This document shows positions 14,656 to 56,379 of a stretch of DNA of 64,000 nucleotides, in pieces. A program made the position numbers and the translations under genes. Origin of the DNA: an uncultured Candidatus Cloacimonadota bacterium (lineage in GTDB: Bacteria > Cloacimonadota > Cloacimonadia > Cloacimonadales > Cloacimonadaceae); contig CAYSAT010000002.1 of the NCBI GenBank assembly GCA_964429035.1, positions 26,626 through 90,625 on the forward strand, given 5' to 3'. Position 1 is the stretch's first letter, and each line of letters opens with the position of its first letter. The notes below the pieces were generated by a model, which saw only the letters and a list, made by a program, of their open reading frames with translations, was not told the origin of the DNA and ran no database searches.

Positions 14656-15603
14656 CTAACTTCTACTTGATGTAAGGATGTCAGCGCTTAATTTCTTACT
14701 CAATACAACAGCCCCTTTCTGATTTAAATGCTGGCAATCATAAAAATCTGAGTCAGGCAGAGCTAACTGAGAATAATTGATATAATGGGTAGTGGCATTT
14801 TCCAGCGATTCCGCCGCCGAATCCACTTCTCTGATGAATTTTTCGGGGATCTTGCGATAATAGGAGTCATGTACAGGCGTATTGACCAAATATAGGTTTA
14901 TCCCTGACGCTCCGCATAGATCACTGATTCTCTCCAGATAAGCTATCTTCATTGCCGAGATATCCTTGATCCCGTGGTTTTTATGGTAATGGTTTTGAAT
15001 GGTCTTGTCCAATTCAGCAGCCTCCCTCACGACAGATGTGCCGGCACTTATAAATGATCCAATGTACGGAGCGTTGAGGGTCCCCCGATATTTTCTGAAA
15101 TTCAGGCACTCAGCAAAATCGTTGGCTACACCAAAAGGTATTTTGTATACATCCGCCAAATACCTGATAACGAAATTGAAAAAAACGCCCTCATCAATAA
15201 AAAAGTCCCGGTAAAAAGCCTCGTCAAGCAGCATATGATACCTTTTCAGCATCTCCGAACTCCCGCTACTGCCGTATTTGCTGAGGGAATGATAGGAATA
15301 GGTAAGGACTACGTTCTCAATGCCATTATCGCTCTGCAGTATTTTGGCCAACTTATAATAGGAGTACATGAGAAATTCGGAAGATTGTGATATGTTAACA
15401 CTTGCTTCAAGATAATCAGGATTAATGCCCTGCTGCGCGTGCGAATCCCCGAGAATCAGTGTTTTAATGCCGCCGGGCAACGTGACCTGATATGACTTGT
15501 TGTGATTGAACAACTTCGCCTTCACTATCGACGCGACAAACAATATGGCGAATGCCAGTATAATCATGGCGCCTGCGGTTGCGTGTTTCTTAGAAATTGG
15601 CAT
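14656..15603 (-). CDS. Membrane-anchored SGNH/DltD-like acyl-transfer protein (module A)
   Basis: 315 aa. One N-terminal TM segment (AGAMIILAFAILFVASIV), block-I-like LILGDSHAQQG and a C-terminal YDCQHLNQKG (DxxH). It overlaps the stop of the upstream MBOAT gene by 14 nt. Confidence 0.5.
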   Translation of the reverse strand: MPISKKHATAGAMIILAFAILFVASIVKAKLFNHNKSYQVTLPGGIKTLILGDSHAQQGINPDYLEASVNISQSSEFLMYSYYKLAKILQSDNGIENVVLTYSYHSLSKYGSSGSSEMLKRYHMLLDEAFYRDFFIDEGVFFNFVIRYLADVYKIPFGVANDFAECLNFRKYRGTLNAPYIGSFISAGTSVVREAAELDKTIQNHYHKNHGIKDISAMKIAYLERISDLCGASGINLYLVNTPVHDSYYRKIPEKFIREVDSAAESLENATTHYINYSQLALPDSDFYDCQHLNQKGAVVLSKKLSADILTSSRS

Positions 15604-28108: not shown

Positions 28109-28112
28109 TCTT

Positions 28113-28868
28113 TTACAGGACCGTACAGCCGTCCACCCCGATGATCTGCCCTGAGATATAACTTGAGAGGTCGGAAGCCAGGAACACGCAGGCGTTGGCG
28201 ATTTCCTCCGGCTCTGCCAAACGGCCAAACCCGATGTTCGAGACCTTGTCCGAAAAATTGTCCTCCATAACTTGTTTCAGTCTCTCTGTAGCCACCATAC
28301 CCGGAGCTAGGGCATTTACCCTGATGTTGGCGGCAGCCAATTCCTTTGCGGCTGACTTCGTTATAGACACAACCGCCCCTTTGGAAGCGGAATATGCCAG
28401 CTGGCCACCAACGCCATTTACGCCCACGATACTAGACATGTTGATGATAGAGCCTGATTTGTTGCGCGCCATGACTCTGGATACCATTTGTATTAGATCA
28501 ATCATAGCAAACACATTTACATCGAACATGGCACGGAGGTTGTCTTTAGTGATCAAACTCATGAATTCGTAAGTGACAATACCCGCATTATTAACCAGTA
28601 CATCAATGCGGGATTGTTGCTTTCTGATACCGGCCAACGTTTCCTTGACTGCTACGGAGTCAGTGATATTAAAGTAACTGGGTATGATCGTGCCCGGCAA
28701 ATCAGCTGGCAATTCACCCAGCCAGGCATCGACTGAACCCGACACCACATCATTAGCGTAAACAACCGCCCCCTCCTCCGCAAAGCGCTGCGCAATGGCG
28801 CGGCCGATACCTCTTCCACATCCGGTCACCAGGGCGATCTTTCCTTCCAGAAGCCGTGTGCCGTTCAT
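28113..28868 (-). CDS. Short-chain dehydrogenase/reductase, FabG-like ketoreductase (SDR-1)
   Basis: 251 aa; IALVTGCGRGIGRAIA, NNAGI, YSASKGAV, VNALAPGMV. Confidence 0.85.
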   Translation of the reverse strand: MNGTRLLEGKIALVTGCGRGIGRAIAQRFAEEGAVVYANDVVSGSVDAWLGELPADLPGTIIPSYFNITDSVAVKETLAGIRKQQSRIDVLVNNAGIVTYEFMSLITKDNLRAMFDVNVFAMIDLIQMVSRVMARNKSGSIINMSSIVGVNGVGGQLAYSASKGAVVSITKSAAKELAAANIRVNALAPGMVATERLKQVMEDNFSDKVSNIGFGRLAEPEEIANACVFLASDLSSYISGQIIGVDGCTVL

Positions 28869-40146: not shown

Positions 40147-41538
40147 CTAGAACTGGAAATAGATAAAATTCTCACTGTTTAGGGAACCAATTAGCACTAT
40201 CAGTAGCGTGCAGACTATGTAAAAGGACCACCTAATCATTAACCTTTTACTGGCAATAAAGGAGGGAAGCAACTCGTCTCCCTTGATAACTTCCAGAAGC
40301 CAGATCATCCCTGTGCCGATCAAAGAATATATCAGCAGTTGCTTGGAGCCCCAATAAAATCCAGATGGGCTCAAACCAAGATGAGATACTATGTATACAA
40401 CATCATTGATATTTCTGGCTCGGAACAAGATGAAGCAAAAGACGAAAAACCCCATCACTAAAATGTTGGATATTGCGTTACCCAGAATGCCCGGAAAATA
40501 CTTCCTTACTCGAGATCTCAGATTCGTAGTAGATAACTCCCAAAGTATTGCTGCAGCCTGTAGTAGCCCGAAAACCACAAAATTCCAGTTGGCGCCATGC
40601 CAGATGCCGATGATCTGAAAGGTAACCAGGGCTGCCAACAAAATTCCAACCCGGCCTATTCCCCGCAATTTGTACTGCAGAGGGGTATTCACGTAATCTC
40701 TGACCCAGGAAGAAAGTGAAATATGCCAGCGTCGCCAGAAATCTGTCACGCTTTTGGCAAAGAAAGGGATTCGGAAATTCTCAATCAGATTGAAGCCGAA
40801 CATTTTTGCCGAGCCAATCGCGATCTCCGAATACCCGGAAAAATCAGCGTAAATTTGAATAGTGTACGCAATTGCCGCGACAGTAAGGGTCAATCCATGG
40901 TGCATGTGGACATTGTTGAACACAGCGTCCGTATAGGGAGCCAAATTATTCGCCACAACCAGCTTTTTGAACAAACCCCAAAGAATAAGTGTGGCACCCC
41001 CTACCAGGTTGTTATATTCAAAACGTTTGACCTTGTCTATCTGGGGAAGGAACAATTTGCTGCGGGCAATAGGTCCGGCCAGCAGCTGAGGGAAAAAAGA
41101 CATATAGAGCGAGAACCGGCTAAAAGATGCCTGGCGATTACTGTTCTGCCAGTAAAGATCCAAAACATATCCGATCGCCTGGAAACTGAAAAATGAAATA
41201 CCAATCGGCAGTAGCAGCCTGGACCACAGAGAGTCATCAGGTATGTTTTGACCAAACAGGAGGATGGGGATGTATTTAAAAAATGCCAGTATCAGCACAT
41301 TGTAAGTTATAGCAGCGTAGATCAGCCATGTTTTTCTAAATCTGAGCCACAGCGCGCAAATGACGTAGTTGATGACAATTGCAGAGGCCAGGAAAACAAC
41401 ATACCAGCTTTGATTGACGTAATAGAAAACGAAACTTGCAGCCAGTAGCAGATAGATCCTGTACTTGTGCTGGAGCGTATAGTACAGAGCAACTATAGCA
41501 GTCAGGTAAATCAAATAGTAAAGGGACGTTAAGGACAT
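40147..41538 (-). CDS. MBOAT-family membrane O-acyltransferase (DltB/AlgI-like, module B)
   Basis: 463 aa polytopic; FWRRWHISLSSWVRDY and IIGIWHGANWNFVVFG (conserved His). Confidence 0.85.
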   Translation of the reverse strand: MSLTSLYYLIYLTAIVALYYTLQHKYRIYLLLAASFVFYYVNQSWYVVFLASAIVINYVICALWLRFRKTWLIYAAITYNVLILAFFKYIPILLFGQNIPDDSLWSRLLLPIGISFFSFQAIGYVLDLYWQNSNRQASFSRFSLYMSFFPQLLAGPIARSKLFLPQIDKVKRFEYNNLVGGATLILWGLFKKLVVANNLAPYTDAVFNNVHMHHGLTLTVAAIAYTIQIYADFSGYSEIAIGSAKMFGFNLIENFRIPFFAKSVTDFWRRWHISLSSWVRDYVNTPLQYKLRGIGRVGILLAALVTFQIIGIWHGANWNFVVFGLLQAAAILWELSTTNLRSRVRKYFPGILGNAISNILVMGFFVFCFILFRARNINDVVYIVSHLGLSPSGFYWGSKQLLIYSLIGTGMIWLLEVIKGDELLPSFIASKRLMIRWSFYIVCTLLIVLIGSLNSENFIYFQF

Positions 41539-41658: not shown

Positions 41659-41904
41659 TTAAGGCGTGATTTTTGACAGTATGCAGATATAAAGGTCTGC
41701 CATAGTGTTAAAGTTTATCACTTCCACGAAGCTGAATTTCACATTAAAATGCTTCTCGATCTCGGTGATTATAACCATATGTGAAAGAGAATCCCAACCC
41801 TTAATGTCTCCGGCAGTAGTATCATCTGTTAAATCAAAATCGCTGTGTTTCAAGACATCTTGCACAATTGCTGACACATTTTGTTTTACTTGTTCTTTAG
41901 TCAT
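41659..41904 (-). CDS. Acyl/aminoacyl carrier protein (module B)
   Basis: ORF 41659..41937. Start at ATG 41904 (MTKEQVKQNV), preceded by AGGAGATAGT and lying downstream of the GNAT stop at 41913. DIKGWDSLSHMVIITEIE is the Ser context. Confidence 0.75.
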   Translation of the reverse strand: MTKEQVKQNVSAIVQDVLKHSDFDLTDDTTAGDIKGWDSLSHMVIITEIEKHFNVKFSFVEVINFNTMADLYICILSKITP

Positions 41905-41912
41905 ACTATCTC

Positions 41913-42686
41913 CTATCTTGCGTGACCAACTTTCCAAAATATGTCAAAGTAGCCACTTATTTGAAAGCCTAAATCCAACCAAGGTTTTCTGCCCATTTTT
42001 GACGCTTGCGAAAACACAAATTTGTACCCATTATCTAGACACAGTTGCAGTGCTTTAGTAAAAATCGATTTTCCAATCCCTTGTCTTCTAAATTCGGGAT
42101 CTACTGCCACCATATGTACACTAGCACCTGTAGAGCCCAAGAAAACCAGGGTTGTAGCCACTGGTTTGTTATCGAGATACCCAAGCAAAAGAACATACTT
42201 TTGAGACAAGAATCCTAGGACTGGTAACTCCTTGTTAGAGAATAGTACCTTTCTAGCGATTTCATGCCACAAATCCAAAGTTGGATTGTCTGATACAATC
42301 CTAACCTGTAGTTCCAATGACTCTTGATTTTCCGGTATGCCTTGTGTGAGATCGTAGAAAATGGCCGGCCACACCTCAATTTGCCTGATGCCCAGATTTT
42401 CCATTTCTGCAGTCAGATTTCCGTTTTCCAGTAACTCGTGCCTTATGAGAAATATCGGTGATATTGTGTTAGTCAACACACTGTCATTAAGAGCGCTAAG
42501 GTATCCTTCAGCTTCTGCAATCCTATCCGAGACTATCGTGAAATTCGGCCAACAGAAACGACTTGAAAAGATACTGAGATCAGGTTCATCAACTTTGATT
42601 ATGTCTGTTGATTGATAAAACACATCTTCATACATCTCTATCAGATTCTTCCAGTTTAGTTCATTCAACTGTGATGATCGGTCCAT
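41913..42686 (-). CDS. GNAT-family N-acetyltransferase
   Basis: ORF 41913..42695 (GTG); ATG 42686 (MDRSSQLNELNW) preferred. VHMVAVDPEFRRQGIGKSIFTKAL is the acetyl-CoA-binding motif A (Q/RxxGxG). Confidence 0.65.
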   Translation of the reverse strand: MDRSSQLNELNWKNLIEMYEDVFYQSTDIIKVDEPDLSIFSSRFCWPNFTIVSDRIAEAEGYLSALNDSVLTNTISPIFLIRHELLENGNLTAEMENLGIRQIEVWPAIFYDLTQGIPENQESLELQVRIVSDNPTLDLWHEIARKVLFSNKELPVLGFLSQKYVLLLGYLDNKPVATTLVFLGSTGASVHMVAVDPEFRRQGIGKSIFTKALQLCLDNGYKFVFSQASKMGRKPWLDLGFQISGYFDIFWKVGHAR

Positions 42687-42700
42687 ACCTAACACGAAAC

Positions 42701-44170
42701 CTAGGTTAATCCTGATAACTTGTTTCGATCAATTTTATCGTTTACATTCAAGGGAAATTGATCTATGTTAACAATGTTTTTGGGAACCATGTAGGGTGGC
42801 AATTTCAACCCAAGGTATCCAACAACATCTTCGTGCGACCCTTGATAATTTTCAATGAACAGAAACAACTGCTGGTTTCCATCTACCGTCTTGACGATGG
42901 CAATGGAGCGCTTACCAGTGAATTTGCTTGTGTGATATTCGATTTCATTTAGTTCGATGCGGAGACCCTGGATCTTGGCTTGAAAATCTTTCCGTTCACA
43001 ATATGAATAGTCGCCCTTTTCATTCATAAACACAATATCTCCGCTAGCGTAAAAGCGCTCGACCTGCCCGTTGTAATTTAAATAATGAAAGGATTCTGTA
43101 TTCTTTTCTTCGTCATTTAGGTAGCCTTCCGATACTTGGGGACCACCGATCAGCAATTCTCCTTTCTGACCAATTTCCGTGACCACTCTGTTATCATCCA
43201 ATATCAGGTGCTTAACTCCCGGCATAGGTTTTCCAATTGGAATTATATCATTGTAGAGTTCATCTGTACGAATCACATCCAACTGTTTTGTAAAAACGAT
43301 CACAGTTGTTTCGGTAGGACCGTATATGTTCCAAATTTTTGCATTGGGAATTGAAGGTTTAAACATATCAACCAAGGTTTTTGTAACAGGTTCAGCTCCA
43401 ATTAGAAGTGTTTTAACACTGGGCAGATGAAGTGACGATATGTACGATTTCAGTAAAGAAATAACTGACGGAACGAGAAATATAAACGTGATCGGATAAG
43501 TCGTAAGCACTCTAGCTATGTCAATTATCTTAATGCTTGCTGGATTAATAGTATAGATTGTGGCTCCAACGCAAAGTGAAGGAAGAAGCATGAGAATCGA
43601 AGCATCAAATGTTAGGTCGAACATCTGTAAAACACTGTCAGTTTCACGATACTCTATGGTGGTTCCAAATAGTGACTGAAGAAAAGCTTCTAGGTTTTTC
43701 TTTGTGATTTTAACGCCTTTAGGTTTTCCTGTACTGCCAGATGTATATACAATATATGCTGTAGAAAGAGGTTCCAGACTTCTAAAATGCATATCAGTAA
43801 GTGGTTCAGGTATAGAATCCATACCAATAAAAGACAGGAAATCTGGTACCTTTTCTGAATCTGCCTTGATGCTGCTAACTACATGACTAATGTTCGAACT
43901 GGTAGATATTTGTATTAAACGATCAGGAGGATACGCCAGATTGAGAATTACATATCCACAATTACTCAGGAACGTGGCAATTATGAAAGCATAAGTTTCA
44001 ATATCATCATGCATGACTATGCCTAGTAAGTCATTGTCATGATGCTCATACAAATATTGGCAGTATTTTTTTACCCGCAAGCCCAGATCTTTATAACTGT
44101 GTGATTTATCACTAATCACAAAAGCTGTGTTATCTGAATGGAGCAAGTGTTCTATGATTTGTTCGATCAT
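42701..44170 (-). CDS. Adenylation enzyme, DltA-like (amino acid/carboxylate--carrier protein ligase)
   Basis: ORF 42701..44233. ATG 44170 (MIEQIIEHLL) is preferred because GGAGATAAT lies upstream. YIVYTSGSTGKPKGVKITKKNL, NIYGPTETT, YASGDIV, and a stand-alone ~490-aa size match DltA/NRPS A domains. Confidence 0.85.
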   Translation of the reverse strand: MIEQIIEHLLHSDNTAFVISDKSHSYKDLGLRVKKYCQYLYEHHDNDLLGIVMHDDIETYAFIIATFLSNCGYVILNLAYPPDRLIQISTSSNISHVVSSIKADSEKVPDFLSFIGMDSIPEPLTDMHFRSLEPLSTAYIVYTSGSTGKPKGVKITKKNLEAFLQSLFGTTIEYRETDSVLQMFDLTFDASILMLLPSLCVGATIYTINPASIKIIDIARVLTTYPITFIFLVPSVISLLKSYISSLHLPSVKTLLIGAEPVTKTLVDMFKPSIPNAKIWNIYGPTETTVIVFTKQLDVIRTDELYNDIIPIGKPMPGVKHLILDDNRVVTEIGQKGELLIGGPQVSEGYLNDEEKNTESFHYLNYNGQVERFYASGDIVFMNEKGDYSYCERKDFQAKIQGLRIELNEIEYHTSKFTGKRSIAIVKTVDGNQQLFLFIENYQGSHEDVVGYLGLKLPPYMVPKNIVNIDQFPLNVNDKIDRNKLSGLT

Positions 44171-44280
44171 ATTATCTCCGTTTTGGTTTTTAGCAAATAT
44201 CTGCCATAGAATTTGTAAGCGAATTTTTTCCATTCTTCATTTCGATACCTCATCAATTCTCACGAGATGACATTGTAAAG

Positions 44281-45660
44281 TCATTTATGGTATCTACGAA
44301 TAAATTCTTCCACCTCAGGTATCCCGCCCTGGAAGATGAGGTAGCCGTTGTAGGGTTCGCCGGCGGTGATATCTCCGGCGATGGGAGTGAGCATCAATTC
44401 GCGGACTTTCTCAGGATCGGTGGTTTGCCCCAAAGCCCAGCCCAGCTTGATGTAGGCGACTTCGGGGAGGAGGTTTTCACCGGGGACCACGCCCATGCTC
44501 ATGAGGTCGCGGCCGGTGTCGTAAACGAACATATGGACGAAGCCCCAGAGGGTTTGCACGGTCATAAAGATCTGGACGCCTTTGGCGACGGCGCGCTGGA
44601 TGGCGGGATACAGGGGCTTGTTGACGTGCCCGAGTCCCGTTCCGGCGATCACGATGCCCTTGTAGCCGTTCTCCGTGAGGGAATCGATGATGTCCGGATG
44701 CATGTTGGGATAGTAATAAACGATCGCCACCCGTTCCTCGAAGAAGGGCAGCACTTTCACAGTTTTGTCCTTGCGCCGCTGGTTGTAATCCTTCATCGGG
44801 ATCACGGAATCCCGCGTCACACGGGCGATCGGGATATCTCCGACGGTGCGGAAGGTGCTGCGGTAGGAGGAGTGCATCTTGCGCACACGTGTGCCCCGGT
44901 GGAGCAAACCATATTCATCGCTGGTGGGGCCAAACATGCAGACCATCACCTCCGCGATATCGGAATGTCCGGCGGCATAGGCGGCGTGCATCAGATTCAG
45001 CGCGGCGTCGGAAGACGGGCGGTCGCTGGAACGTTGCGAACCCACCATCACCACAGGGACCGGCAGGTCCTGCAGCATGAAGGAAAGCGCCGCGGCGGTG
45101 TGATGCATGGTATCGGTGCCGTGGCCGATGATGATGCCTTGGGTGCCCGCGTTGATCTCGTGGCCGATGGAAACCGCCAGTTTCTTGTACTGGTCGGGCC
45201 CCATGTTTTCGGAAAAAACGGCGAAAAGTTTTTCGGTGTCGAGGTTGCAGATCTCCGCCAATTCTGGCACCGCGCCATAGAGTTCGCCGGGAGAGAAAGC
45301 AGGAATCACGGCTCCGGTGCGGTAATCCAGACGCGAGGCGATGGTCCCGCCGGTGCCGAGCAGCTTGACTTTCGGCAAGCCCGGGGTGAAGGGAAATTCC
45401 TTCTCCGGAATCTTGTAATGCGCCTCTTTGTAGCCGATCTCCTGCATGCCGCGGATCGTGTCCACATCAATGCCGACGTTGTAACCGGTGGCCAGTTTGA
45501 TCACGATGTGACGGTCGTCGTCATTTTCGCTGCGGGGCAGGATGATGCCCTGAAAATCCCCGCGCGAAGTCTGGATATTCGTCTCTCCCCAGACTCTGGC
45601 TTGAAAGTGTTTCAACACTTCAAGCGCTCGCCCTTTGTAGCCCTTGAAGAGATCAAGCAT
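44281..45660 (-). CDS. gatD: Glutamyl-tRNA(Gln) amidotransferase subunit D (archaeal-type, asparaginase-like)
   Basis: 459 aa. A ~90-aa N-terminal extension precedes the asparaginase core with LLGTGGTIASRLDYRTG and IIGHGTDTM motifs. Encoded next to a GatE homolog. Confidence 0.85.
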   Translation of the reverse strand: MLDLFKGYKGRALEVLKHFQARVWGETNIQTSRGDFQGIILPRSENDDDRHIVIKLATGYNVGIDVDTIRGMQEIGYKEAHYKIPEKEFPFTPGLPKVKLLGTGGTIASRLDYRTGAVIPAFSPGELYGAVPELAEICNLDTEKLFAVFSENMGPDQYKKLAVSIGHEINAGTQGIIIGHGTDTMHHTAAALSFMLQDLPVPVVMVGSQRSSDRPSSDAALNLMHAAYAAGHSDIAEVMVCMFGPTSDEYGLLHRGTRVRKMHSSYRSTFRTVGDIPIARVTRDSVIPMKDYNQRRKDKTVKVLPFFEERVAIVYYYPNMHPDIIDSLTENGYKGIVIAGTGLGHVNKPLYPAIQRAVAKGVQIFMTVQTLWGFVHMFVYDTGRDLMSMGVVPGENLLPEVAYIKLGWALGQTTDPEKVRELMLTPIAGDITAGEPYNGYLIFQGGIPEVEEFIRRYHK

Positions 45661-45671
45661 TTTCTGATCTG

Positions 45672-45708
45672 TTCACGAATTTCACGAATTTACACGAATT
45701 ACAGGAAT
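45672..45708 (+). repeat. Tandem CACGAAT array (left flank of the GxxExxY gene, 5' leader of gatD)
   Basis: gtTCACGAATtTCACGAATttaCACGAATtaCAGGAATg: four units at 9-10-nt spacing (45674, 45683, 45693, 45702). Confidence 0.85.
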
Positions 45709-45717
45709 GCAAAATAT

Positions 45718-46101
45718 CTAGAGGACTATACGTTCATGCTGAAGACTTGGGGTACCAAAATTGACCAGAATACCCAATTTTAGCTGAGCTGCTTTCAGGT
45801 AATTGAGAACCTGTGCGAAATGATCACTGGTGAATTGGCTCAAGGCTTTCAATTCGACGATAATCTGTCCGTAGCATAGGAAGTCAACTTTGTAGGTCTT
45901 CGATATGATAGCACCTTTATAGGCGATCTCAAATTCTTTTTCGCGCTCAAAGGGAATCCCTCTAGTCTGGAGTTCCAAGGCTAACGCTTCCTGATAAACT
46001 GGTTCCAGAAAACCACATCCCAAGGTTCTGTGTACTTCCATGCATGCGCCAACAATAGCGTAACTCTCGTCTTTGAAAAGTAGATCCTGGCTATTGTCCA
46101 T
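45718..46101 (-). CDS. GxxExxY protein (PD-(D/E)XK-like, PDDEXK_3 family)
   Basis: 127 aa; the name-giving motif is present (GCGFLEPVYQEAL). Typical size and a C-terminal LVNFG motif. Confidence 0.85.
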   Translation of the reverse strand: MDNSQDLLFKDESYAIVGACMEVHRTLGCGFLEPVYQEALALELQTRGIPFEREKEFEIAYKGAIISKTYKVDFLCYGQIIVELKALSQFTSDHFAQVLNYLKAAQLKLGILVNFGTPSLQHERIVL

Positions 46102-46107
46102 TAGTTG

Positions 46108-46138
46108 TCCACGAATTGCACGAATTCACACGAATTTT
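46108..46138 (+). repeat. Tandem CACGAAT array (right flank of the GxxExxY gene)
   Basis: tcCACGAATtgCACGAATtcaCACGAATttt: three units (46110, 46119, 46129), same orientation as the 45672..45708 array. Confidence 0.85.
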
Positions 46139-46266
46139 AGGTTTTACCGGTTACCTAGTGTTGAGATGGTTGCAGAACCCTGGGGCTACCACTATTGTTC
46201 ACAGGTTCCCATGTAGCTTTCATGCGCAGGTACCCAGGAAACTTTGTCATTGCAGATCTGGCGGTC

Positions 46267-46295
46267 ATTATATAAGTTGAGGTAATTCGTGTCAA
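46267..46295 (-). promoter_or_regulatory. Perfect sigma70-consensus promoter (TTGACA-N17-TATAAT) facing the GxxExxY gene and gatD
   Basis: Minus strand 46295->46267 reads TTGACA cgaattacctcaactta TATAAT. The -35 lies inside the inverted CACGAAT array, and its internal TGA is the gatE stop codon (46294-46292). Confidence 0.45.
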
Positions 46296-46310
46296 TTCGT
46301 GTAATTCGTG
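46285..46310 (-). repeat. Tandem CACGAAT array in inverted orientation, overlapping the gatE 3' end
   Basis: Plus strand ATTCGTGtcaATTCGTGtaATTCGTG (46285, 46295, 46304) is the reverse complement of CACGAAT x3. It encodes the last gatE residues ...STNYTN and the stop. Confidence 0.85.
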
Positions 46311-48346
46311 GACAGCTCTTCTTCCACAGCCTGCCGTAACTCCGCCAGCGGAATGTTACCCAAGGCAAGGTAACGCAAACGGCCCATCATCCAGTTGGAT
46401 TGGGCGTCCGGGCGCTTCAAGCCGTGCGTTTTGGCGCGCGCCCACATATTGCGTAACAGGGGTATTTGCGCCAGGATTTCCTCCCGCGCTACGTCCTTAT
46501 AATTCAGAACTGAAAGTACGGAAGAGAACTGCATATTGGGGCTGGCAAAAAGCACTCTCAGCATTTCCGGCAGGATGTCCGGCGCCAGTTTCTTCTTGGC
46601 GGCATAGATCAGCAAATCTTCCACCCGCTGATTGTCGAAGGGCAGCGGATCGCGTCCCTGCAGGCTTTTGAGCAGGTGCGCGTAGTACAGGCCCAGGCGT
46701 TTGGGCGGCACACCATGTTTGGTTGAAAAATCCTCGAGTACCGGCAGCAGATTGTTGCGCAGCAAGTAGGTATGCGCGTCGTCTGGGATACCCCACTCCG
46801 CAAGTTGTTCCAGCCGCTTCTGCAAACCAACTGGAAGCAAGGCGCGGGCTGCCTCGATCTCCTCGTCAGTTACGGGAATAGGAGCGGAATCGGTGTCCGG
46901 ATACATTCTGTCCGCGCCCGGCAACACCCGTTCAAACAGCGTCGTGCCGTCTGGCAGGGATTTCCGCGTTTCGTTGGGCACGCCCTGGAAAGCCAGCTGG
47001 CAGCGCTCGGAAATGGTCTCCAGAGCGGTTTTGATATCTTCGTCAGAAGCCCAAAAAAGCATCTGCGCGTCGGCATTTGTGGACTTCAGTTCTTTGCGGA
47101 TCTTGCCCCAATCCGTGGAGTGTAGCGAAGAATGAGCCTGGGTTATTGAATCTATATTCGCCGACGGGGACGTCGGCGCTCCCAGTTCCTCCGAATGGAA
47201 CATGTTCGGTTTTTCCAGGCAGGCAATGACTTTCAGGCGGTCGGAAATCTCGTCGGCGAAGCAGCGTCCGGGCTGATTAAAGTAACTCAGGATGCCTGCG
47301 AACCCCGGAAGGTTCACCGCTACAAGTTTCCAGCCTTCCGCGCCGGCTTGTTTCAGCAGCGGAATATGGCGCCAATCTGCGGGATCCAGAACTGCGTGTT
47401 GGATACTCCATTCAGCCTGGTCCTTGATCCTGGCAGCCAGTTCATCCCGGATCAACAGCAGCGATTTCTGACGGAAAGCCTCGTTATGAGTGAGTTTAGG
47501 AATCCAGGCGATGTGCGCCACGCCCTTGATTTCTACCCGCGTCCCACCTGTGATGGAAACGTTCACATCCTGGCGCGCGGCTCCAATGCCAACCCTCACC
47601 AATCCAGAGCTGCGGGCGATGAAGCGGATGTTCTGCGCGGCTTCCGCTGCCTCCCAAGGTGTGAGCATATCCGGATAGGTAACCGTTTCGATGAGCGGCA
47701 TGCCCAAGCGGTCAGCGTAGTATACCCTGGTGTGGCGTACGTCGGACACTTCGCGGCAGCTGTCTTCCTCGATGGAAAACTGGATCACGCGGATTTTTTT
47801 GGTGGAGATGGGAAACTCGCCCTCGATACCCAGGATCGCCGTGCGTTGGAAACCGGTGGGGATGCTGCCGTCCAGATACTGTTTGCGCGTGATATGCAGT
47901 TCGCCCACGATCTTCATGTTCAGGAGCAGGGCGATCCGCAGCGCGTGGGACAGCGCTTCGCGGCTCAGGGCAAAGGGCGGAGTGTCGTCCACTTCGTAGG
48001 TGCAGGCGCTGTCGTTCTTGATGCGGTACAGTATCTTTTTCCGCGTCTTGAATTCCATCAGCGCGGTGCCGTCGTACTCACCGAGTTCGGAAAGAGTGGG
48101 CCGCATATGCCGCACGATTTCCGCGTCGTAATCGGCGAAATCGTGGTAGATACCTGCGGCGCAGCGGCAAAATAGTTTGCGCTGGGTGAGGAGCTGTTGG
48201 TGAACTTCCAGGCCGCACTTGAACCCAAGCGTTCGCCAGGTCGCTTGCACGGCGTCCGAAAGGCTCACCCAGCCTGTGTTTGAGCGGCTGAGCAGCCAGT
48301 TTTGCCGGTGGGGATTAGCCTCCGGCAAGTGTATATACTCTGACAT
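46292..48346 (-). CDS. gatE: Glutamyl-tRNA(Gln) amidotransferase subunit E (archaeal-type)
   Basis: ORF 46292..48361 (GTG); ATG 48346 (MSEYIHLPEANP) is slightly preferred. FKCGLEVHQQLLTQRKLFCRC and ITRKQYLDGSIPTGFQRTAILG are the GatE versions of the GatB/E cradle-domain motifs. Paired with gatD. Confidence 0.85.
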   Translation of the reverse strand: MSEYIHLPEANPHRQNWLLSRSNTGWVSLSDAVQATWRTLGFKCGLEVHQQLLTQRKLFCRCAAGIYHDFADYDAEIVRHMRPTLSELGEYDGTALMEFKTRKKILYRIKNDSACTYEVDDTPPFALSREALSHALRIALLLNMKIVGELHITRKQYLDGSIPTGFQRTAILGIEGEFPISTKKIRVIQFSIEEDSCREVSDVRHTRVYYADRLGMPLIETVTYPDMLTPWEAAEAAQNIRFIARSSGLVRVGIGAARQDVNVSITGGTRVEIKGVAHIAWIPKLTHNEAFRQKSLLLIRDELAARIKDQAEWSIQHAVLDPADWRHIPLLKQAGAEGWKLVAVNLPGFAGILSYFNQPGRCFADEISDRLKVIACLEKPNMFHSEELGAPTSPSANIDSITQAHSSLHSTDWGKIRKELKSTNADAQMLFWASDEDIKTALETISERCQLAFQGVPNETRKSLPDGTTLFERVLPGADRMYPDTDSAPIPVTDEEIEAARALLPVGLQKRLEQLAEWGIPDDAHTYLLRNNLLPVLEDFSTKHGVPPKRLGLYYAHLLKSLQGRDPLPFDNQRVEDLLIYAAKKKLAPDILPEMLRVLFASPNMQFSSVLSVLNYKDVAREEILAQIPLLRNMWARAKTHGLKRPDAQSNWMMGRLRYLALGNIPLAELRQAVEEELSTNYTN

Positions 48347-48504
48347 TGGGGACAAATCCACTCATAGTGCGGATTTTGTCCAGCTTTAATTTTATCCCTG
48401 AGGGGCAGGTTCCAAATCGCCTGGCGACGTTTTGGGCGCAGTTTCGCGAAGCAATTGTTTCATTGTGAAATCATTGCCTTTGTTTATAAGCAATTACTGA
48501 GAGG

Positions 48505-48600
48505 CTCCCACGATCATTACGCGCTGATTGCGGGCTCATTGCGCGCTAAGCCCGCAGTGAGCGCGCAATGACCGCGCAATGATAACGGGAACGGTCTGGG
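48505..48600. repeat. Imperfect palindromic repeat element built from CATT(A/G)CGCG-type units (family copy A)
   Basis: ctcccacgatCATTACGCGctgATTGCGGGctCATTGCGCGct-aagcccgcagtg-aGCGCGCAATGacCGCGCAATGataacGGGAACGGTCTGgg. The core 12-bp stem is 48536-48547/48560-48571. It shares an identical 18-mer (48561-48578 = 60251-60268) and the 12-mer GGGAACGGTCTG (48587-48598 = 60186-60197) with the element at 60186..60292. Confidence 0.7.
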
Positions 48601-48624
48601 CATTCTCCTAAAAACATATCCGGC

Positions 48625-50532
48625 TCAGAGTATCACGTCGCCCATAACGACCAGTTCCTCCAAATCCACATCGGCGATCACCAGTTTGACTGGAGTTTGC
48701 AGGGGCGGACGGTCTTCGCAGCGCAGCACGATGCGCTTGTCCCAAGCGGTGAGTTCCGTCAGGAAACCGTGTTTCAGCCGCTTGAGCAAAACGGCGTCAA
48801 GAGGGGAATTCAGGTGCTTTTTTCGCAGGAAGCGCAGCAGCCAGTAACGCTCGCTCCGATGGGCTATGGCGCGCAGCTGGAGCAGCCGCTTTTCGATAAC
48901 GGGGATCATTTCATCCAAATCATTGCGGGAAAAAGGCTGGGGCGATCCCGCCAGCAGCGATTCAAACTGCGCCTGGTTGACGATATCGGCGAATCTGCGG
49001 ATGGGCGAAGTGGCGTGCAGATAGGCCTGCGAGCCGATCCCGGGATGGAATTTGCCCTCGGTGGAAAGATAGGCCTGGATGCCCGGAAACTTGGCCTCTT
49101 CTTCATCTTCCGGCTCGAAATACTGCGCGATGTTGCGGTAGATGAGGGGCAAATCCTGGCTGCTGGCCTGTTCCGCCATAATCCGGTTGTAGAGGATCAT
49201 CAGTTCTTCCACGATGAACCGGGCAGGGCTTAGGTTATCGATGCGCTGCATCAGCATATCTCCATCCGCCACCTTCAAGTTCCAACTATAACGCTGCCGG
49301 TGGTCGTTCGCGCCGCCAGTCCGCTCCAGCTGCAGTTTGCGGCAAACGCGCAGCAGATCCGCGTAAGGCTTGGCAGCGATTTGGGCGTCCACCTCGTCAT
49401 AAGTGAGATTGCGCGCCAATCGAATGGTTGCGCGGCGAAACTCATAGCGATGCGGACGCAGATCCTGATCCAAACTAACGAAAAGCGAGAGGACGGCACG
49501 CGGTGCGGACTCTAGCAAACTGAAAGCCTGAGAGGAAAGTTCAGAAGGCAGCAGGGGAATGCTCCCGGAGGGTAGATACAAGGAGGAGACGCGGTTTTGG
49601 GCTTCCCGGAAAAGGTCAGAACCAAGCGCTAATTGAGCCGCCACGTCGCTGATGTGGATCCCCACTTCCCAGCCGTCGGGCAAAGCCTGCAGGGAGATGG
49701 CGTCATCGTGGTCGGGAGAATCGGCGGCGTCGATGCTGAAAGCCTCGACAGCGATCGGTTCCCCGGTCACCGATGGCCTGGCCTCACGCCACAAATCAGG
49801 CGTAAAAAGGACCGGAATCCCGCTACCTGCGGCCATGGGATCGGTCTCTAAATCCAAATCGCCCAGGAGGGCTCGCAGATCCAGGATCTGACGCGCTGTC
49901 TCGGCACCATCGGACGCTTTGCGGAGCAACCGCGCCAAGTCCCTATGACCTTCCGCAACCTGCAATTCCCGCAGTTCAGCCAGAAACCTGTTCCGGGTTT
50001 GCGCAGAAAGGGATGGCGCTTTGCCTGCTGCAACGCCAGCCAGGAATTCCGCGAGTTCTTGCAGATACGCGGCGCGTTCGTTCTCCAGATTGCGCTGCTC
50101 GAGGAAAACAGCGCGTTCCTCTTCAGTGCGGCGTTTGAACAACCCTTTCTTATACAGGAAAAGGTCAGCGCGGTCTTTCAGCAGCAGAAACAGCGCGAAG
50201 CGGTGCAGATCGTCCGTGTAACCCAGTTCTGAGCAGGCTGCGTCGATCTCGAACGGAGTGGATAGGCCTGCCAGTTTAGCGAGCATGGGTTCGGTGTCCA
50301 GGGCGTCTCGGCAATCCTGCAATTCCTGCGACCAGCTGTTCAGAGCAGCTGGCGTGACCGATGCCAGGGCAACACGCGAAACCAGGATAAAGCGGTCGGT
50401 GGAAAGGTTTAGCGATTGGCCGGAGCCGTCCAGAACTTGGCAGTAACGCTCGCCAACAGAGGCAAGCAATCCCGGGCGGAGCTGCGCCTGAGAGTAAAAG
50501 AGCACGATTTGGCCTGGCTCGAAGTGCTTCAT
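48625..50532 (-). CDS. RNB-domain 3'-5' exoribonuclease (RNase II/R family)
   Basis: 635 aa; DSPDHDDAISL and YLHATSPIRRFADIVNQ are RNB catalytic-domain motifs. Confidence 0.85.
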   Translation of the reverse strand: MKHFEPGQIVLFYSQAQLRPGLLASVGERYCQVLDGSGQSLNLSTDRFILVSRVALASVTPAALNSWSQELQDCRDALDTEPMLAKLAGLSTPFEIDAACSELGYTDDLHRFALFLLLKDRADLFLYKKGLFKRRTEEERAVFLEQRNLENERAAYLQELAEFLAGVAAGKAPSLSAQTRNRFLAELRELQVAEGHRDLARLLRKASDGAETARQILDLRALLGDLDLETDPMAAGSGIPVLFTPDLWREARPSVTGEPIAVEAFSIDAADSPDHDDAISLQALPDGWEVGIHISDVAAQLALGSDLFREAQNRVSSLYLPSGSIPLLPSELSSQAFSLLESAPRAVLSLFVSLDQDLRPHRYEFRRATIRLARNLTYDEVDAQIAAKPYADLLRVCRKLQLERTGGANDHRQRYSWNLKVADGDMLMQRIDNLSPARFIVEELMILYNRIMAEQASSQDLPLIYRNIAQYFEPEDEEEAKFPGIQAYLSTEGKFHPGIGSQAYLHATSPIRRFADIVNQAQFESLLAGSPQPFSRNDLDEMIPVIEKRLLQLRAIAHRSERYWLLRFLRKKHLNSPLDAVLLKRLKHGFLTELTAWDKRIVLRCEDRPPLQTPVKLVIADVDLEELVVMGDVIL

Positions 50533-50547: not shown

Positions 50548-50623
50548 TGGCGCCCCAGAGATGAATCGAACATCCGACCAACGGTTTAGGAAACCGCTGC
50601 TCTATCCCCTGAGCTACTGGGGC
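50548..50623 (-). tRNA. tRNA-Arg (anticodon CCT), CCA encoded
   Basis: Reverse complement folds by hand into a cloverleaf: GCCCCAG-TA-GCTC-AGGGGATA-GAGC-A-GCGGT-TTCCTAA-ACCGT-TGGTC-GGATG-TTCGATT-CATCT-CTGGGGC-G-CCA (76 nt). It has a 7-bp acceptor stem, a TTCGATT T-loop and anticodon CCT. Confidence 0.85.
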
Positions 50624-52819: not shown

Positions 52820-55333
52820 TCAGCGCAGCAGGGCGATCTTGCCAGACCGGCGCTGGCCTTTGGCGTCGTTCACCACCACGTAGTAAACACCGCTGCCGCA
52901 CTTCTTCCCTTTAGCGTTCTGGCCGTTCCATTCAAAACGCGAAAATTCGTTCTCATCCAAAATGATCACCAACGCTCCGGAAGCGTCGTAAATCCGGCAC
53001 TGATTGGTGCCGCGGGGCATGATTTCGCTGGGGAAATTGCTGATGACCAAGGTGCTTTTGCCATCCGGACGGAAGGGATTGGGGTAGATCTTGAGAGTCT
53101 CCAGAGCGGTTTCCGGCTTGATCGTCCGGCCGATGGTTAGCGTATTCAAGCCATCCGGAGTGCCGATCAACAGCAAGCCCTCGGTGGGTTGGTAACCCAG
53201 GGCGGTGATATAGTTGGAAAGCAGGGGCGAGTTGTCCTGATAGTAGTTCGTAAACCGTTCAGTCTGGGGGTCATACATGCTGATCCCGTGCTCCAAACTG
53301 CCGATCCAGACGCGGTTGAAAGGATCGAGGAAGATCGCCGTGGGTGTGGTGCGCACCGACCCGTAGAGCCGTTCTTCGTCCACGTAATAGAGTAGGTCGT
53401 TGTTCCAAAGGTTGGTGGAGGTGTTATAGATGAAGCGTTTGACCGAGGTGTCCCACTTATACCAGAAAGCCTCGTCCCACATGAACAATCCGGTGCTGGC
53501 GGCGATCCAATGCTGCGTTCCCTCATAGGGGCTTTCCACAGAAACCACGCCGTAAACCTCGCAATTGTTCAGGTCTGAAGGCGGCGGAACGATCCAATGG
53601 TCGCCATTGGTGGCAGGGATGGAGTCGTCGTTCCAGATCACGAGGCCGCGGTCGCTTTCCGTGCCGATAAAGTATTGTCGCCCGTTGTGGAAACTGAAGG
53701 TGGAACGCTGAAACACGCTGTTGGGGATCGTGAATGTGCCCACCAGGCTGTCCGCCGCGTTGAACACGCTGAAACCGTCGTCGTAGCAGGCCACAAGCAT
53801 GTTGCCGTGTGAATCGCGGGACACATGCGTCGAGGTGTCGCCCAAAAGGGTTGGCGAGCCTGGAATGACGTCTCCCCACTCTGTGGTCTCCGCGTCCCAA
53901 ACCCTTATCCCATCGCTGTCGAGGAGTTTCCAGGCCCCGGTGGTTTCATCATAGATGGTCAGGCCGTTGTCCCAGTCCAGAGGGCTGCCTGTGGTTACGT
54001 CGTAGGTGCCGAACCATTTGCGGTTGTGGCTGTCCACGGTCACGCTAAGTACGTTATCCGTATGGATGGGGCTGTTGCCGGTGGTGAAGGTTTGCCATTC
54101 CCCGTCCAGATAGCGGCTGGTTCCCAGCGCGCTTTTCTTGAGCGGCAGATGGTTGATGTTCCCGCTGGAAAACCAGGCGGCGTGGTTGGCGTCCGTGGTG
54201 ATCTGGCGGATCTTGGGAAAGCCGATGGAATTGGGCTGAAAGCGCACCCACATATCCAATTGCCGCTTGTTTGTGTTGTCGGCCCAAAGGTCCTGATAGG
54301 TATAGATTCCGTCGCCCCAGGTGCAAAGATAGACGACGCGTCCGTTGGGAGAAGGGACGATGCGGCTGACGCTTTTGCTTCCGAGTCCGGACTCGCCGGC
54401 ACTCCAATGCTTGATGTAGCCGCTGGTATCGATGCTGGTGAGCAGCGTGTCGGAACTGCGTGAATATGCCAGGAAATCCTCGTTCCACAGGCCATAGGAA
54501 ACCCACACGGTGTTCCAGTGATCCACGCAAGCGCTGGATATCACGTCGCCGAGCAGGCCCTGGCTGGAAGAAATGGTCTGCCAGCCATCGCTCCAGGGAT
54601 CGCTGGAATGCAGATACACCGCGGAGGATGTGGCAACCACCAGTTTCTGCTCGTTGATGGCGAGTTTGTTCTGGAAACCAATGGGAATCGGCGCGCCCTG
54701 GAACCGGTGCCAGGCGGAATCGACGTCCAGGGAATCCACATGCACGAAATTCACGCCCGCTGTGCTGCTCAGAAACAGGTAATCGTTTTCAGCCAGGGCG
54801 AGGGCGTCGATCTGGTTGTTAAGCAGGCCCCCGTTGGTGTTTTCCGCGCTGTAAAGATGCAGCAGCAGAGGGAAGTTTACGCCTTCCAGGTAATAGTAGG
54901 AAGCCAAACCGTTGGCTGTGGCCACCAGGATGTTGGATCCGTGCTCCACGATGCCGGTCACACGGTTGGAAGGCAGGCCCAGCTCCGTGTTCAATTGCTG
55001 GATGCCCAAAGGGCTAACGATGCTGATGCCGTCGAAAGCGCTGCCCAGCCACAGACTTTGGGAAGCGCTGATGTATTCGATATTGCGCACGTCGTTGGAA
55101 GCCAGGCCGTCTGCCGTGGTCCAGATCCTCTTTTGCTCCAGGGCGCTCTGGTTATCGATGCTGGATGGCGTAAGGCCGAGCTGCAGCACTCCGCCCCAAG
55201 TGGAAAAATAAACGTCTTCGCCCTGAACCATCAGGTCATAAACGTGGCTGGTATTGGTCACGGTCTGCCATTTCGCGGCATGCAAGGCCAGGCAGCAGAT
55301 TCCCGCCGCCAAAAGCGTCAAAACTCTCTTCAT
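52820..55333 (-). CDS. Secreted beta-propeller-repeat protein with T9SS-type C-terminal sorting domain
   Basis: 837 aa. Signal peptide MKRVLTLLAAGICCLALHA. Repeated W/G/D-rich blades resemble two-component-regulator propeller repeats. The C-terminus is LKIYPNPFRPDGKSTLVISNFP...GSGVYYVVVNDAKGQRRSGKIALLR (Por_Secre_tail/FlgD-Ig-like). Confidence 0.65.
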   Translation of the reverse strand: MKRVLTLLAAGICCLALHAAKWQTVTNTSHVYDLMVQGEDVYFSTWGGVLQLGLTPSSIDNQSALEQKRIWTTADGLASNDVRNIEYISASQSLWLGSAFDGISIVSPLGIQQLNTELGLPSNRVTGIVEHGSNILVATANGLASYYYLEGVNFPLLLHLYSAENTNGGLLNNQIDALALAENDYLFLSSTAGVNFVHVDSLDVDSAWHRFQGAPIPIGFQNKLAINEQKLVVATSSAVYLHSSDPWSDGWQTISSSQGLLGDVISSACVDHWNTVWVSYGLWNEDFLAYSRSSDTLLTSIDTSGYIKHWSAGESGLGSKSVSRIVPSPNGRVVYLCTWGDGIYTYQDLWADNTNKRQLDMWVRFQPNSIGFPKIRQITTDANHAAWFSSGNINHLPLKKSALGTSRYLDGEWQTFTTGNSPIHTDNVLSVTVDSHNRKWFGTYDVTTGSPLDWDNGLTIYDETTGAWKLLDSDGIRVWDAETTEWGDVIPGSPTLLGDTSTHVSRDSHGNMLVACYDDGFSVFNAADSLVGTFTIPNSVFQRSTFSFHNGRQYFIGTESDRGLVIWNDDSIPATNGDHWIVPPPSDLNNCEVYGVVSVESPYEGTQHWIAASTGLFMWDEAFWYKWDTSVKRFIYNTSTNLWNNDLLYYVDEERLYGSVRTTPTAIFLDPFNRVWIGSLEHGISMYDPQTERFTNYYQDNSPLLSNYITALGYQPTEGLLLIGTPDGLNTLTIGRTIKPETALETLKIYPNPFRPDGKSTLVISNFPSEIMPRGTNQCRIYDASGALVIILDENEFSRFEWNGQNAKGKKCGSGVYYVVVNDAKGQRRSGKIALLR

Positions 55334-56379
55334 TTTTTTCTCCCCTGCCGCATCAAAATGTATGCCACCACCACCATCAGCATCAACAGCCCCAGCAGCA
55401 CCAGGAACAGGATCTTTTTGGAGGAAAAGGAAAAGCCGATGGCGATGAGGCCAAACAGCAGCGTCACAATATACACGATAAGCGAAATCGCCCTTTGGGA
55501 AAGGCCGAGGGCCAGCATGGCGTGATGCAGGTGCGCTTTGTCGGCGGCGAATATGCTGCCCACGCGAAAACGCCGGAACACCGCCAGCGCCATGTCGATC
55601 AAGGGAATGGAAAGCACCGCCAGCGGAATGAGCAGGGTCATGGAGGTGATGCCCTTGAATTGCGTGGTCCCCGCAGTGGCAATGGCGGCGATGACCAGGC
55701 CGTTGAATTGCGCTCCGGTGTCGCCCAAAAAGATCCTGGCCGGATAGAAATTGAAGCGCAGGAAGGCCAGGTTTCCCGCCAGCAGAAAGGCGGAAAGCGC
55801 GCTCACCACGATATTCTGTTCCTTGATCCCCACGATCAGCAGCACCGCGCAGACGATCACGCAGATACCGGTGGCCAGGCCGTCGATGCCGTCGATCAGG
55901 TTGATCGCGTTCAGCACCACCAGATACCAGATCAAGGTGGCCGGAAAGGACAGCCAGCCGAGCACGAACTCCGCCCCGAAAGGATTGGTGAGGGTATTCA
56001 CGCGGAAGCCGATCACATACATGATCACGCCCACAGCCAGTTGCCAGACCAGTTTGTAGCGCACCCGGCTTTCATAGCGGTCGTCCAGCACGCCGAAAAC
56101 CAGGGTCAGGCAGCCCACTCCCGCTAGTAGCATCAGCATGCGGCCCAGTACGTCCGGCAGCAAACCCAGCCCCAAGCCCAGCATTGCCAAAACGGCAGGC
56201 ACAGCGAAGGAAAGTCCGCCCGCTTCAGGCCTGGCCTGGGCATGGATCTTGCGCTCGCTGGGTTGGGCTATGATGCCGTGCTTGTTGGACCAGCGGATAT
56301 TGATGGGCGCCAGCAAGTGCGTGAGCAGGTGGATACCCGCGGCGTAAAGGACTATCTGCAGAACCACGCTGTGCGTCAC
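55330..56379 (-). CDS. Polyprenyl-phosphate HexNAc-1-phosphate transferase (MraY/WecA/WbpL family, GT4 of the PNPT superfamily)
   Basis: 349 aa polytopic; FGVLDDRY and NAINLIDGIDGLATG motifs. GTGA overlap with the upstream gene and ATGA overlap with the downstream gene. Confidence 0.85.
   Translation of the reverse strand: MTHSVVLQIVLYAAGIHLLTHLLAPINIRWSNKHGIIAQPSERKIHAQARPEAGGLSFAVPAVLAMLGLGLGLLPDVLGRMLMLLAGVGCLTLVFGVLDDRYESRVRYKLVWQLAVGVIMYVIGFRVNTLTNPFGAEFVLGWLSFPATLIWYLVVLNAINLIDGIDGLATGICVIVCAVLLIVGIKEQNIVVSALSAFLLAGNLAFLRFNFYPARIFLGDTGAQFNGLVIAAIATAGTTQFKGITSMTLLIPLAVLSIPLIDMALAVFRRFRVGSIFAADKAHLHHAMLALGLSQRAISLIVYIVTLLFGLIAIGFSFSSKKILFLVLLGLLMLMVVVAYILMRQGRKK

Follow-up and report, generated by a model that had tools for sequence, protein, structure and literature searches.

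The window analysed here is a stretch of 64,000 nucleotides from the contig CAYSAT010000002.1 (positions 26,626 to 90,625) of an uncultured Candidatus Cloacimonadota bacterium, and it carries on its minus strand gatD (44281..45660) and gatE (46292..48346), the genes for the two subunits of the GatDE amidotransferase. A first-pass annotation made from the sequence alone had placed both genes at these coordinates, and all of the motifs it quoted were found; the strand is added here. GatDE has been called exclusively archaeal, or an archaeal signature protein, in reviews from 2008 to 2022 (PMC2811023, PMC8762117, PMC9499178), as that annotation had said, and its co-evolution with the archaeal tRNA-Gln has been invoked for the absence of GlnRS in archaea (PMC9499178). 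The pair is probably (roughly 80%) a genuine Cloacimonadota GatDE tRNA-dependent amidotransferase, one member of a large bacterial clade that would go back to a single ancient Asgard-like transfer, would have spread among bacteria and would then have been passed on vertically within Cloacimonadota; a Syntrophosphaera-like host of the family Cloacimonadaceae, living in anaerobic sludge, is part of this explanation.

The GatD and GatE proteins

The gatD gene encodes a protein of 459 aa, the predicted glutaminase subunit, which was recognized by TIGR02153, Pfam domains, alignments with structure chains and motifs. Both curated GatD equivalog models were passed, TIGR02153 with 512.5 bits (cutoff 324) and NF003217 with 506 bits (cutoff 310), and the Pfam layout consists of PF18195 (GatD_N) at aa 29-69 (47 bits), PF00710 at aa 97-286 and PF17763 at aa 310-423. 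The asparaginase-type catalytic residues were checked, namely the Thr of TGGT, the Thr-Asp of HGTDT and the Lys; their motifs TGGTIAS (aa 103), HGTDTM (aa 180) and RKMH (aa 260) are all identical in the alignments with 1zq1_A and 2d6f_A. The first-pass annotation had read TGGTIAS and HGTDTM behind an N-terminal extension as the GatD architecture, and this holds, with the asparaginase domain starting at aa 97 and GatD_N ahead of it. Type I L-asparaginase (archaeal and bacterial AnsA) resembles GatD in the Thr/Thr-Asp/Lys motifs, and the GatD core passes the subfamily model TIGR00519 with 383 bits against a cutoff of 260.5. However, GatD differs from it in its N-terminal domain of about 95 aa (PF18195), in being always paired with gatE in the present analysis, and in scoring three to four times higher on GatD structures than on free asparaginases: the chain of Pyrococcus abyssi, 1zq1_A, reached 407 bits and 2d6f_A 388 bits, with the alignment to the latter beginning at residue 2, while the best free asparaginase reached 125 bits. 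With these scores and the GatD models passed, a plain type-I asparaginase was ruled out for 44281..45660.

The gatE gene encodes the predicted kinase/amidase tRNA-binding subunit, 684 aa from its ATG, and was identified by TIGR00134, NF003107, phmmer and Foldseek; the frame stays open upstream to a GTG at 48361, which is an alternative start. The motifs GLEVHQQL (aa 45), KLFCRC (aa 57) and RKQYLDGSIPTGFQRT (aa 154) are present, and the catalytic motifs are invariant in 33 bacterial GatE sequences. That the gene is of the GatE rather than the GatB form, as had been proposed, is borne out by the GatE models, which were passed (TIGR00134 with 394.6 bits, cutoff 319.55), and by an end-to-end alignment in which phmmer placed aa 36-678 on residues 2-619 of GatE from Methanothermobacter thermautotrophicus (2d6f_C, 287 bits). 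A GatB identity for 46292..48346 was ruled out, since GatB models gave 46-117 bits against cutoffs of 315-680 and the best GatB matched with 69 bits in the cradle domain only (aa 127-296). The AlphaFold2 (AF2) model of GatE, with a predicted local distance difference test score (pLDDT) of 78.5 and a predicted template modelling (TM) score of 0.72, has the archaeal GatE structures 1zq1_C and 2d6f as its top Foldseek matches (E 3e-39 to 2e-35, target TM 0.71-0.75), while GatB chains rank behind at E of about 1e-20 to 1e-15, so that the GatE structures are better by some 19 orders of magnitude.

The Pfam GatB_N match spans aa 43-497 for a model of 277 positions, and the cradle domain therefore holds an insert of about 180 aa. 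phmmer aligned this insert with the insertion domain of 2d6f_C, its pLDDT is mostly 82-97, and bacterial and mitochondrial AspRS structures are weak Foldseek matches; the Pfam GAD model found no match in the window GatE, although the AspRS-like insert is present. For the tail, the feature looked for was a YqeY-like helical tail with a GatE-type motif instead of the Lys-rich KxGKxK of GatB. The alignment extends to the last residues of 2d6f_C, with MGRLR in common, and the modelled tail is helical with pLDDT >90. PF02637 is unmatched, identity to archaeal tails is about 15%, and the window GatE has YLALGNIP where Methanothermobacter reads RGRADGKV.

Two smaller features of GatE were also noted. 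An N-terminal extension of about 35 aa (aa 1-35; 48242..48346, minus strand) is predicted to form a helix at aa 12-24 with pLDDT >90 and carries the conserved motif NWLxTRxxVGW; it is typical of Cloacimonadota-type GatE and has no counterpart in archaeal and Ignavibacteria-type GatE. Within the insertion domain, AF2 and the alignment delimit a low-confidence insert of 16 aa, PTSPSANIDSITQAHS, at aa ~390-405 (~47132..47179, minus strand), which is confined to the window's own lineage. Taken together, the profile scores and alignments support the reading that the two genes encode GatD and GatE proper, and not a plain asparaginase and a GatB.

Bacterial relatives and origin of the pair

A scan of 1.84 billion cluster representatives returned 587 GatE-like clusters at E <1e-30, which fall into two groups in a neighbour-joining tree. 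The first, 40-55% identical to the window, contains Cloacimonadota, Aminicenantes, Binatia and CSSED10-310, while the named members of the second, 32-40% identical, are archaeal (Heimdallarchaeota, Thorarchaeota and Thermoprotei). Bacteria were then surveyed with a profile of the first group on one genome per GTDB species, with loci confirmed by tblastn, and at least 596 bacterial species-representative genomes were found to carry close GatE relatives. The best 80 of these loci all have bacterial titles and include four complete chromosomes of 3.8-4.2 Mb; they belong to Ignavibacteria, Melioribacteraceae, Kapaibacterium, Myxococcota, Phycisphaerae and other Planctomycetota, Krumholzibacteriota, Aminicenantes, Rhodothermaceae, Neomarinimicrobiota and Cloacimonetes. 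Across phyla, identity to the window is 65-74% for GatD and 41-55% for GatE, and both genes are under strong purifying selection. The closest named relatives of the window GatE (62-84% identity) are all Cloacimonetes, Syntrophosphaera, Cloacimonas or Cloacimonadaceae metagenome-assembled genomes (MAGs), so the pair is conserved across Cloacimonadota, and the window sequence occurs in sludge and digester metagenomes.

The gene order is equally stable. In 71 of 79 loci gatD follows immediately downstream of gatE, and the two overlap by 8 nt in L001, L004 and L092, the last being the closest relative of the window. No neighbour other than gatD is conserved; the next-largest clusters, those of an MFS transporter, an ABC ATPase, a PhoH-PIN protein and an aldehyde dehydrogenase, comprise at most six loci, and gatE-gatD can therefore be regarded as a self-contained two-gene module. 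As a side observation, third-party MAGs titled Hyphomicrobiales, Rickettsiales, Eubacteriales or Cytophagia also carry gatE-gatD (L035, L036, L046, L057, L060, L067, L078, L080 and others). Their identities to the query profile and to the window's proteins lie within the range of the other bacterial loci, they are absent from the trees, and their taxonomic titles look doubtful, so that no weight was placed on them.

The locus is thus ordinary within Cloacimonadota and a member of a bacterial GatDE clade spanning many phyla, and the exclusivity of GatDE to archaea does not hold against at least 596 bacterial genomes that include complete chromosomes. Such exclusivity is a statement about distribution and not a biochemical criterion, and is therefore irrelevant to family membership. 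A full-text literature search outside subscription journals found no paper on GatDE in bacteria and none assaying a bacterial GatDE. Public annotation pipelines already name the bacterial genes GatD and GatE, so that the surprise lies in the textbook statement rather than in the window, and it is the bacterial clade as a whole that seems under-described.

The origin of the pair was approached with neighbour-joining trees on simple distances. GatE was analysed unrooted (617 columns) and with two GatB outgroups, from the gatCAB of Staphylococcus aureus and Bacillus thuringiensis (440 columns), and the GatD tree was rooted with two archaeal asparaginases; a Natrinema GatE (a truncated 448-aa open reading frame, ORF) and a Stutzerimonas gatB region (no long ORF) were left out as references. 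The first-pass annotation had called for trees of both proteins with archaeal references, and these gave one bacterial clade for each subunit, with Asgard sequences nearest. Bacterial GatE formed one clan in 200/200 bootstraps unrooted and in 189/200 with the outgroups, while archaeal GatE was monophyletic in only 15/200; bacteria and Heimdallarchaeota grouped together in 160/200 unrooted replicates, and in the rooted tree the bacterial clan lies within the group that holds the Heimdall and Thor sequences. Bacterial GatD formed one clan in 300/300 bootstraps and grouped with Asgard GatD, to the exclusion of Pyrococcus and Methanothermobacter, in 288/300. When a Heimdallarchaeota GatD was used as query, bacterial GatDs and those of other Asgard archaea (Frey-, Odin-, Jord-, Baldr- and Sigynarchaeia) followed its own relatives level with each other at 52-57% identity.

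These trees would most simply be read as a single old transfer of the pair from an Asgard-like archaeal donor to bacteria, among which it then spread. The suggestion of the first-pass annotation that the transfer is old and ameliorated, and not a recent island, agrees with the host-like codon-position GC of the pair, its conservation across Cloacimonadota and the single bacterial clades apart from the archaea. Vertical inheritance from the last bacterial common ancestor or from LUCA, the last universal common ancestor, with loss from most bacteria, is improbable by comparison. Reportedly, Sheppard and Soll proposed that GatDE was present in LUCA; the bacterial clade is indeed deep and diverse (about 40 clusters at the 50% identity level), many phyla are spanned, and midpoint rooting puts the root between bacteria and archaea. 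With outgroups, however, the bacteria nest inside archaeal diversity beside the Asgard sequences for both subunits, and the distribution is scattered without regard to phylum boundaries, with Cloacimonetes- and Aminicenantes-labelled sequences each in two separate subclades. This last pattern supports the spread among bacteria that is part of the transfer reading.

The split labels concern L027, L039 and L053 versus P0104 and P0108 for Aminicenantes, which lie in two distant bacterial subclades, and L066 versus L001 and L004 for Cloacimonetes; the cause may be a transfer of gatED from one bacterial phylum to another or a wrong labelling of MAGs. Two archaeal loci were also recorded. On a Heimdallarchaeota contig (L086, 5939..9488), the closest archaeal relative, gatD and gatE stand divergently back to back near the archaeal ribosomal protein genes S13, S4 and S11. 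On a 987-kb replicon of Natrinema thermotolerans (L088, 3986..5330), the GatE-like frame is only 448 aa and no feature is listed over it, which may reflect a frameshifted gene or a gap in the plasmid gene table.

Surroundings of the gene pair

The flanking genes are bacterial, as had been noted at first pass. Two proteins with the Por_Secre_tail of the type IX secretion system (T9SS) are encoded at 52820..55333 and 61003..63912, a WecA-like transferase gene lies at 55330..56379, Kbl at 17272..18519, and a tRNA-Arg(CCT) with an encoded CCA at 50548..50623; asd, an M20 amidohydrolase gene and a PorZ-like gene are further bacterial neighbours. Next to gatE, 48625..50532 encodes an RNB-domain protein of 635 aa, which appears to be a divergent RNase II-family enzyme, with 134 bits against a cutoff of 598 on the RNase R/RNase II equivalogs and no S1 or cold-shock domain detected; an RNB gene stands next to gatE in L092 as well. 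The gap of 278 nt between this gene and gatE (48347..48624) is the presumed promoter region of the operon on the minus strand. There was no strong sigma-70 match on the minus strand in this gap, and Rfam detected tRNA only in the window, with no regulatory RNA element upstream of gatE.

The claim that gatDE shares the GC-rich composition of its neighbours stood for one side only. Both genes have a GC content of 0.57-0.58, with GC at third codon positions (GC3) of 0.75 for gatD and 0.70 for gatE, and the right-hand neighbours asd, RNB, M20 and PorZ-like gene have GC3 of 0.67-0.75; the codon-position GC of the pair is that of host core genes. Immediately left of gatD, GC drops to 0.38-0.44 with a step at 44.2 kb, and a gene inserted between gatE and gatD, described below, has a GC of 0.44. 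The step is real and marks the edge of a low-GC glycan locus on the left. The window from 1 to 44233 has a low or uneven GC (0.35-0.54) and meets the GC-rich core at the stop codon of gatD; it has the look of a single long locus for surface glycans and acyl carriers, with MBOAT/DltB-like genes (15590..16945 and 40147..41538), a carrier protein (41659..41937), adenylating ligases (26723..28228 and 42701..44233), two FabH-like synthases, a Wzx flippase and glycosyltransferases.

A sharp GC step directly beside gatD is also what might suggest a chimeric assembly, mis-binned archaeal DNA or, alternatively, a very recent genomic island. However, the low-GC side is the glycan locus and not gatDE, whose GC3 matches that of the four right-hand neighbours. 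The independent assembly GCA_027318475.1 has the matching order WecA-like, PorZ-like, M20, asd, RNB, gatE, gatD; synteny around gatE-gatD is conserved in L092. In L001, L002 and L004, the pair lies on Mb-scale bacterial contigs, the Cloacimonadota examples measuring 2.69 and 4.38 Mb with ComEC, RelA/SpoT and T9SS proteins as bacterial neighbours, and elsewhere it lies on complete chromosomes. Complete genomes with GatDE include JGI Ga0496408_000001 (2.69 Mb), ENA ERZ21831265 ctg82157l (4.38 Mb), CP070718.1, OY760517.1, OY820579.1 and OY970271.1. In two sludge runs, Logan contigs spanning 40-52 kb show an even depth of 3-8x, left and right of the step alike, so that the coverage check proposed at first pass gave no sign of a chimera. 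Matching gene order, Mb-scale contigs of relatives and even depth together exclude chimerism, and an artefact or a recent island, to which we would assign hardly any probability, is as far as these data show already refuted.

In the window, the gatE-gatD operon is split by an inserted cassette of about 650 bp (45663..46311, minus strand), delimited by alignment with L092, by hidden Markov models (HMMs) and by GC3. The cassette carries a GxxExxY / PD-(D/E)XK gene (45718..46101, minus strand; TIGR04256 151.8 bits, PF13366 143 bits) with a GC of 0.44 and a GC3 of 0.47, against 0.70-0.75 for gatE and gatD. A triple repeat of CACGAATT occurs at three places in the window, all at the cassette, where a pattern search expected none by chance: the left boundary repeat (46284..46310, minus strand) overlaps gatE at its final codons and stop, an internal one (46110..46136, plus strand) lies just upstream of the GxxExxY start codon, and the right boundary repeat (45674..45700, plus strand) lies 14 nt upstream of the gatD start codon. 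The left repeat contains a perfect sigma-70 consensus (TTGACA, 17 nt, TATAAT; 46267..46295, minus strand), matching at 12/12 positions and aimed at the GxxExxY gene and gatD, where as a consensus match it might act as a promoter.

The arrangement in relatives is an 8-nt overlap of the gatD start codon with the end of gatE (ATGCTTGA); it is also that of L092, which lacks the cassette. The window gatE diverges from that of L092 at the left repeat, with its last five codons replaced by a new C-terminus, ...STNYTN*. The cassette is polymorphic, as one contig of the wastewater run X4 joins 45700 to 46283 without it. Its repeat bins reach a depth of 10-150x against ~5x elsewhere, with loose read ends and raised depth at 46107/46137. 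Its absence from some strains and the strong over-representation of its repeats in metagenome contigs suggest that the cassette is a small mobile element. In a second relative, L093, a PDDEXK_3 gene follows gatE.

Role in the host and comparison with known amidotransferases

By analogy with the solved archaeal enzymes, a non-discriminating GluRS would charge tRNA-Gln with glutamate, and GatE would bind the acceptor end and use ATP to phosphorylate the gamma-carboxyl group. GatD would hydrolyse glutamine (or asparagine) at its asparaginase-type Thr/Thr-Asp/Lys site, and the ammonia would move from GatD through an internal tunnel to GatE, which would form Gln-tRNA-Gln.

Several observations weigh against a genuine GatDE of Asgard-like origin acting in this way. 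The window GatE scores 456 bits on the GatE model NF003107, exactly at its cutoff of 456. The tRNA-contacting parts of GatE have strongly diverged in the Cloacimonadota branch (15-24% identity to archaeal GatE, against 42-49% in the catalytic cradle), and Pfam detects only GatB_N in Cloacimonadota-type GatE, with GAD and GatB_Yqey (YqeY) below threshold. ARAGORN found no tRNA-Gln in the window or in 85 related loci with 10-kb flanks, where Lys, Glu, Arg and Val tRNAs were found. Ignavibacterium album, a cultured relative of some GatDE lineages, was reported with GlnRS and gatCAB (PMC3927822), which makes redundancy of GatDE in some hosts conceivable. Lastly, the Asgard affinity is suggestive and not established: archaeal GatDs were sampled by their similarity to an Asgard query, with only Pyrococcus and Methanothermobacter as euryarchaeal references, and with distance trees in addition the donor assignment should be taken as a lead rather than a result.

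The divergence of GatE is uneven. The catalytic cradle is about 62% identical within bacteria and 43-47% between bacteria and archaea, while between bacteria and archaea the insertion domain reaches 24%, the helical domain 19% and the tail 18%; these last three are the parts that grip the tRNA in the Methanothermobacter co-crystal. Both GAD and GatB_Yqey were matched in the Heimdallarchaeota GatE, and Ignavibacteria-type bacterial GatE mostly retain the GatB_Yqey match (PF02637), so the extra divergence is specific to the window's branch. A loss of detectable GAD and YqeY in all bacterial GatE was accordingly rejected, being true of the Cloacimonadota-type branch only. In tRNA-Gln, archaeal GatDE recognizes the A1-U72 pair and the D-loop, whereas bacterial GatCAB reads U1-A72 (PMC2330236, PMC2811023), and an enzyme adapting to a bacterial tRNA-Gln would be expected to diverge in just these insertion, helical and tail modules.

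The same divergence could also mean that the family has another job here, in which GatDE coexists with GatCAB and/or GlnRS and acts on Asp-tRNA-Asn, on both mischarged tRNAs, on an extra-translational tRNA or as a redundant back-up. We hold this to be unlikely, though a more serious contender than vertical descent. The tRNA-selecting domains are the most diverged parts, and in the Cloacimonadota branch Pfam fails to detect them; U1-A72 is the usual pair of bacterial tRNA-Gln, where archaeal GatDE reads A1-U72 (PMC2330236); and the report on I. album fits such a coexistence. On the other hand, the whole architecture is retained, including the insertion domain that sterically excludes AspRS complexes in archaea; conservation across phyla is strong in GatD (65-74%) and in the GatE cradle; and the two-gene operon is tightly conserved, as expected of an essential translation function. 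Moreover, neither I. album nor any other cultured isolate was among the named matches of protein searches with window, Heimdallarchaeota and Ignavibacteriaceae queries, and the Ignavibacteriaceae GatE search returned only MAG-labelled names.

A wider and more tentative proposal, which we think somewhat less than an even bet, extends the GatDE reading: an Asgard-derived GatDE may have displaced GatCAB as the only route to Gln-tRNA-Gln in Cloacimonadota and many uncultured lineages, with the diverged domains re-tuned from A1-U72 to U1-A72 and to a bacterial GluRS. If the proposal is true, GatDE is no hallmark of archaea, and the exchange of tRNA identity by which the field accounts for archaea never having gained GlnRS is an experiment that nature has performed already.

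The value of these data lies in the bacterial GatDE clade and not in the single locus of the window. A large, conserved bacterial clade contradicts archaeal exclusivity, and it offers natural test cases in which to ask how the tRNA identity rules of an amidotransferase change, how such an enzyme works with a bacterial GluRS as partner and whether it can replace GatCAB. The apparent Asgard affinity would in addition add a case to the record of gene exchange between Asgard archaea and anaerobic bacteria.

Among known systems, archaeal GatDE (M. thermautotrophicus 2D6F and P. abyssi 1ZQ1) is most similar to the window pair, with two subunits in identical domain order: GatD_N followed by the asparaginase N and C domains in GatD, and a cradle domain, an AspRS-like insertion, a helical domain and a tail in GatE. 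Both subunits align over their whole length (GatD 388-407 bits, GatE 269-287 bits) with the catalytic motifs conserved, and the archaeal structures are the best structural match of the predicted GatE model. The differences are that the host of the window is bacterial, that the bacterial genes form a coupled gatE-then-gatD operon while the Heimdallarchaeota locus is divergent, that the window's branch of GatE adds the N-terminal segment of about 35 aa with its confidently predicted helix, and that the partner GluRS and tRNA-Gln would have to be bacterial.

Bacterial GatCAB (S. aureus, 3IP4) resembles GatDE in coupling a tRNA-dependent kinase/amidase with a glutaminase by an ammonia tunnel, and the cradles of GatB and GatE are homologous, as seen in the 69-bit match at aa 127-296 and in a Foldseek E of about 1e-19. 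In GatDE, however, the glutaminase is the asparaginase-type GatD instead of the amidase GatA, GatC is lacking, GatE contains an insertion domain that GatB does not have, and all GatB HMMs remained far below their cutoffs on the window GatE. With window GatE and GatD as tblastn queries, no second GatB- or GatE-like match was found on the loci, and Pfam found no amidase or GatC among the called genes of L001-L005, a screen of called genes rather than a dedicated gatA/gatC search. GatCAB also makes Asn-tRNA-Asn, which archaeal GatDE does not (PMC2330236).

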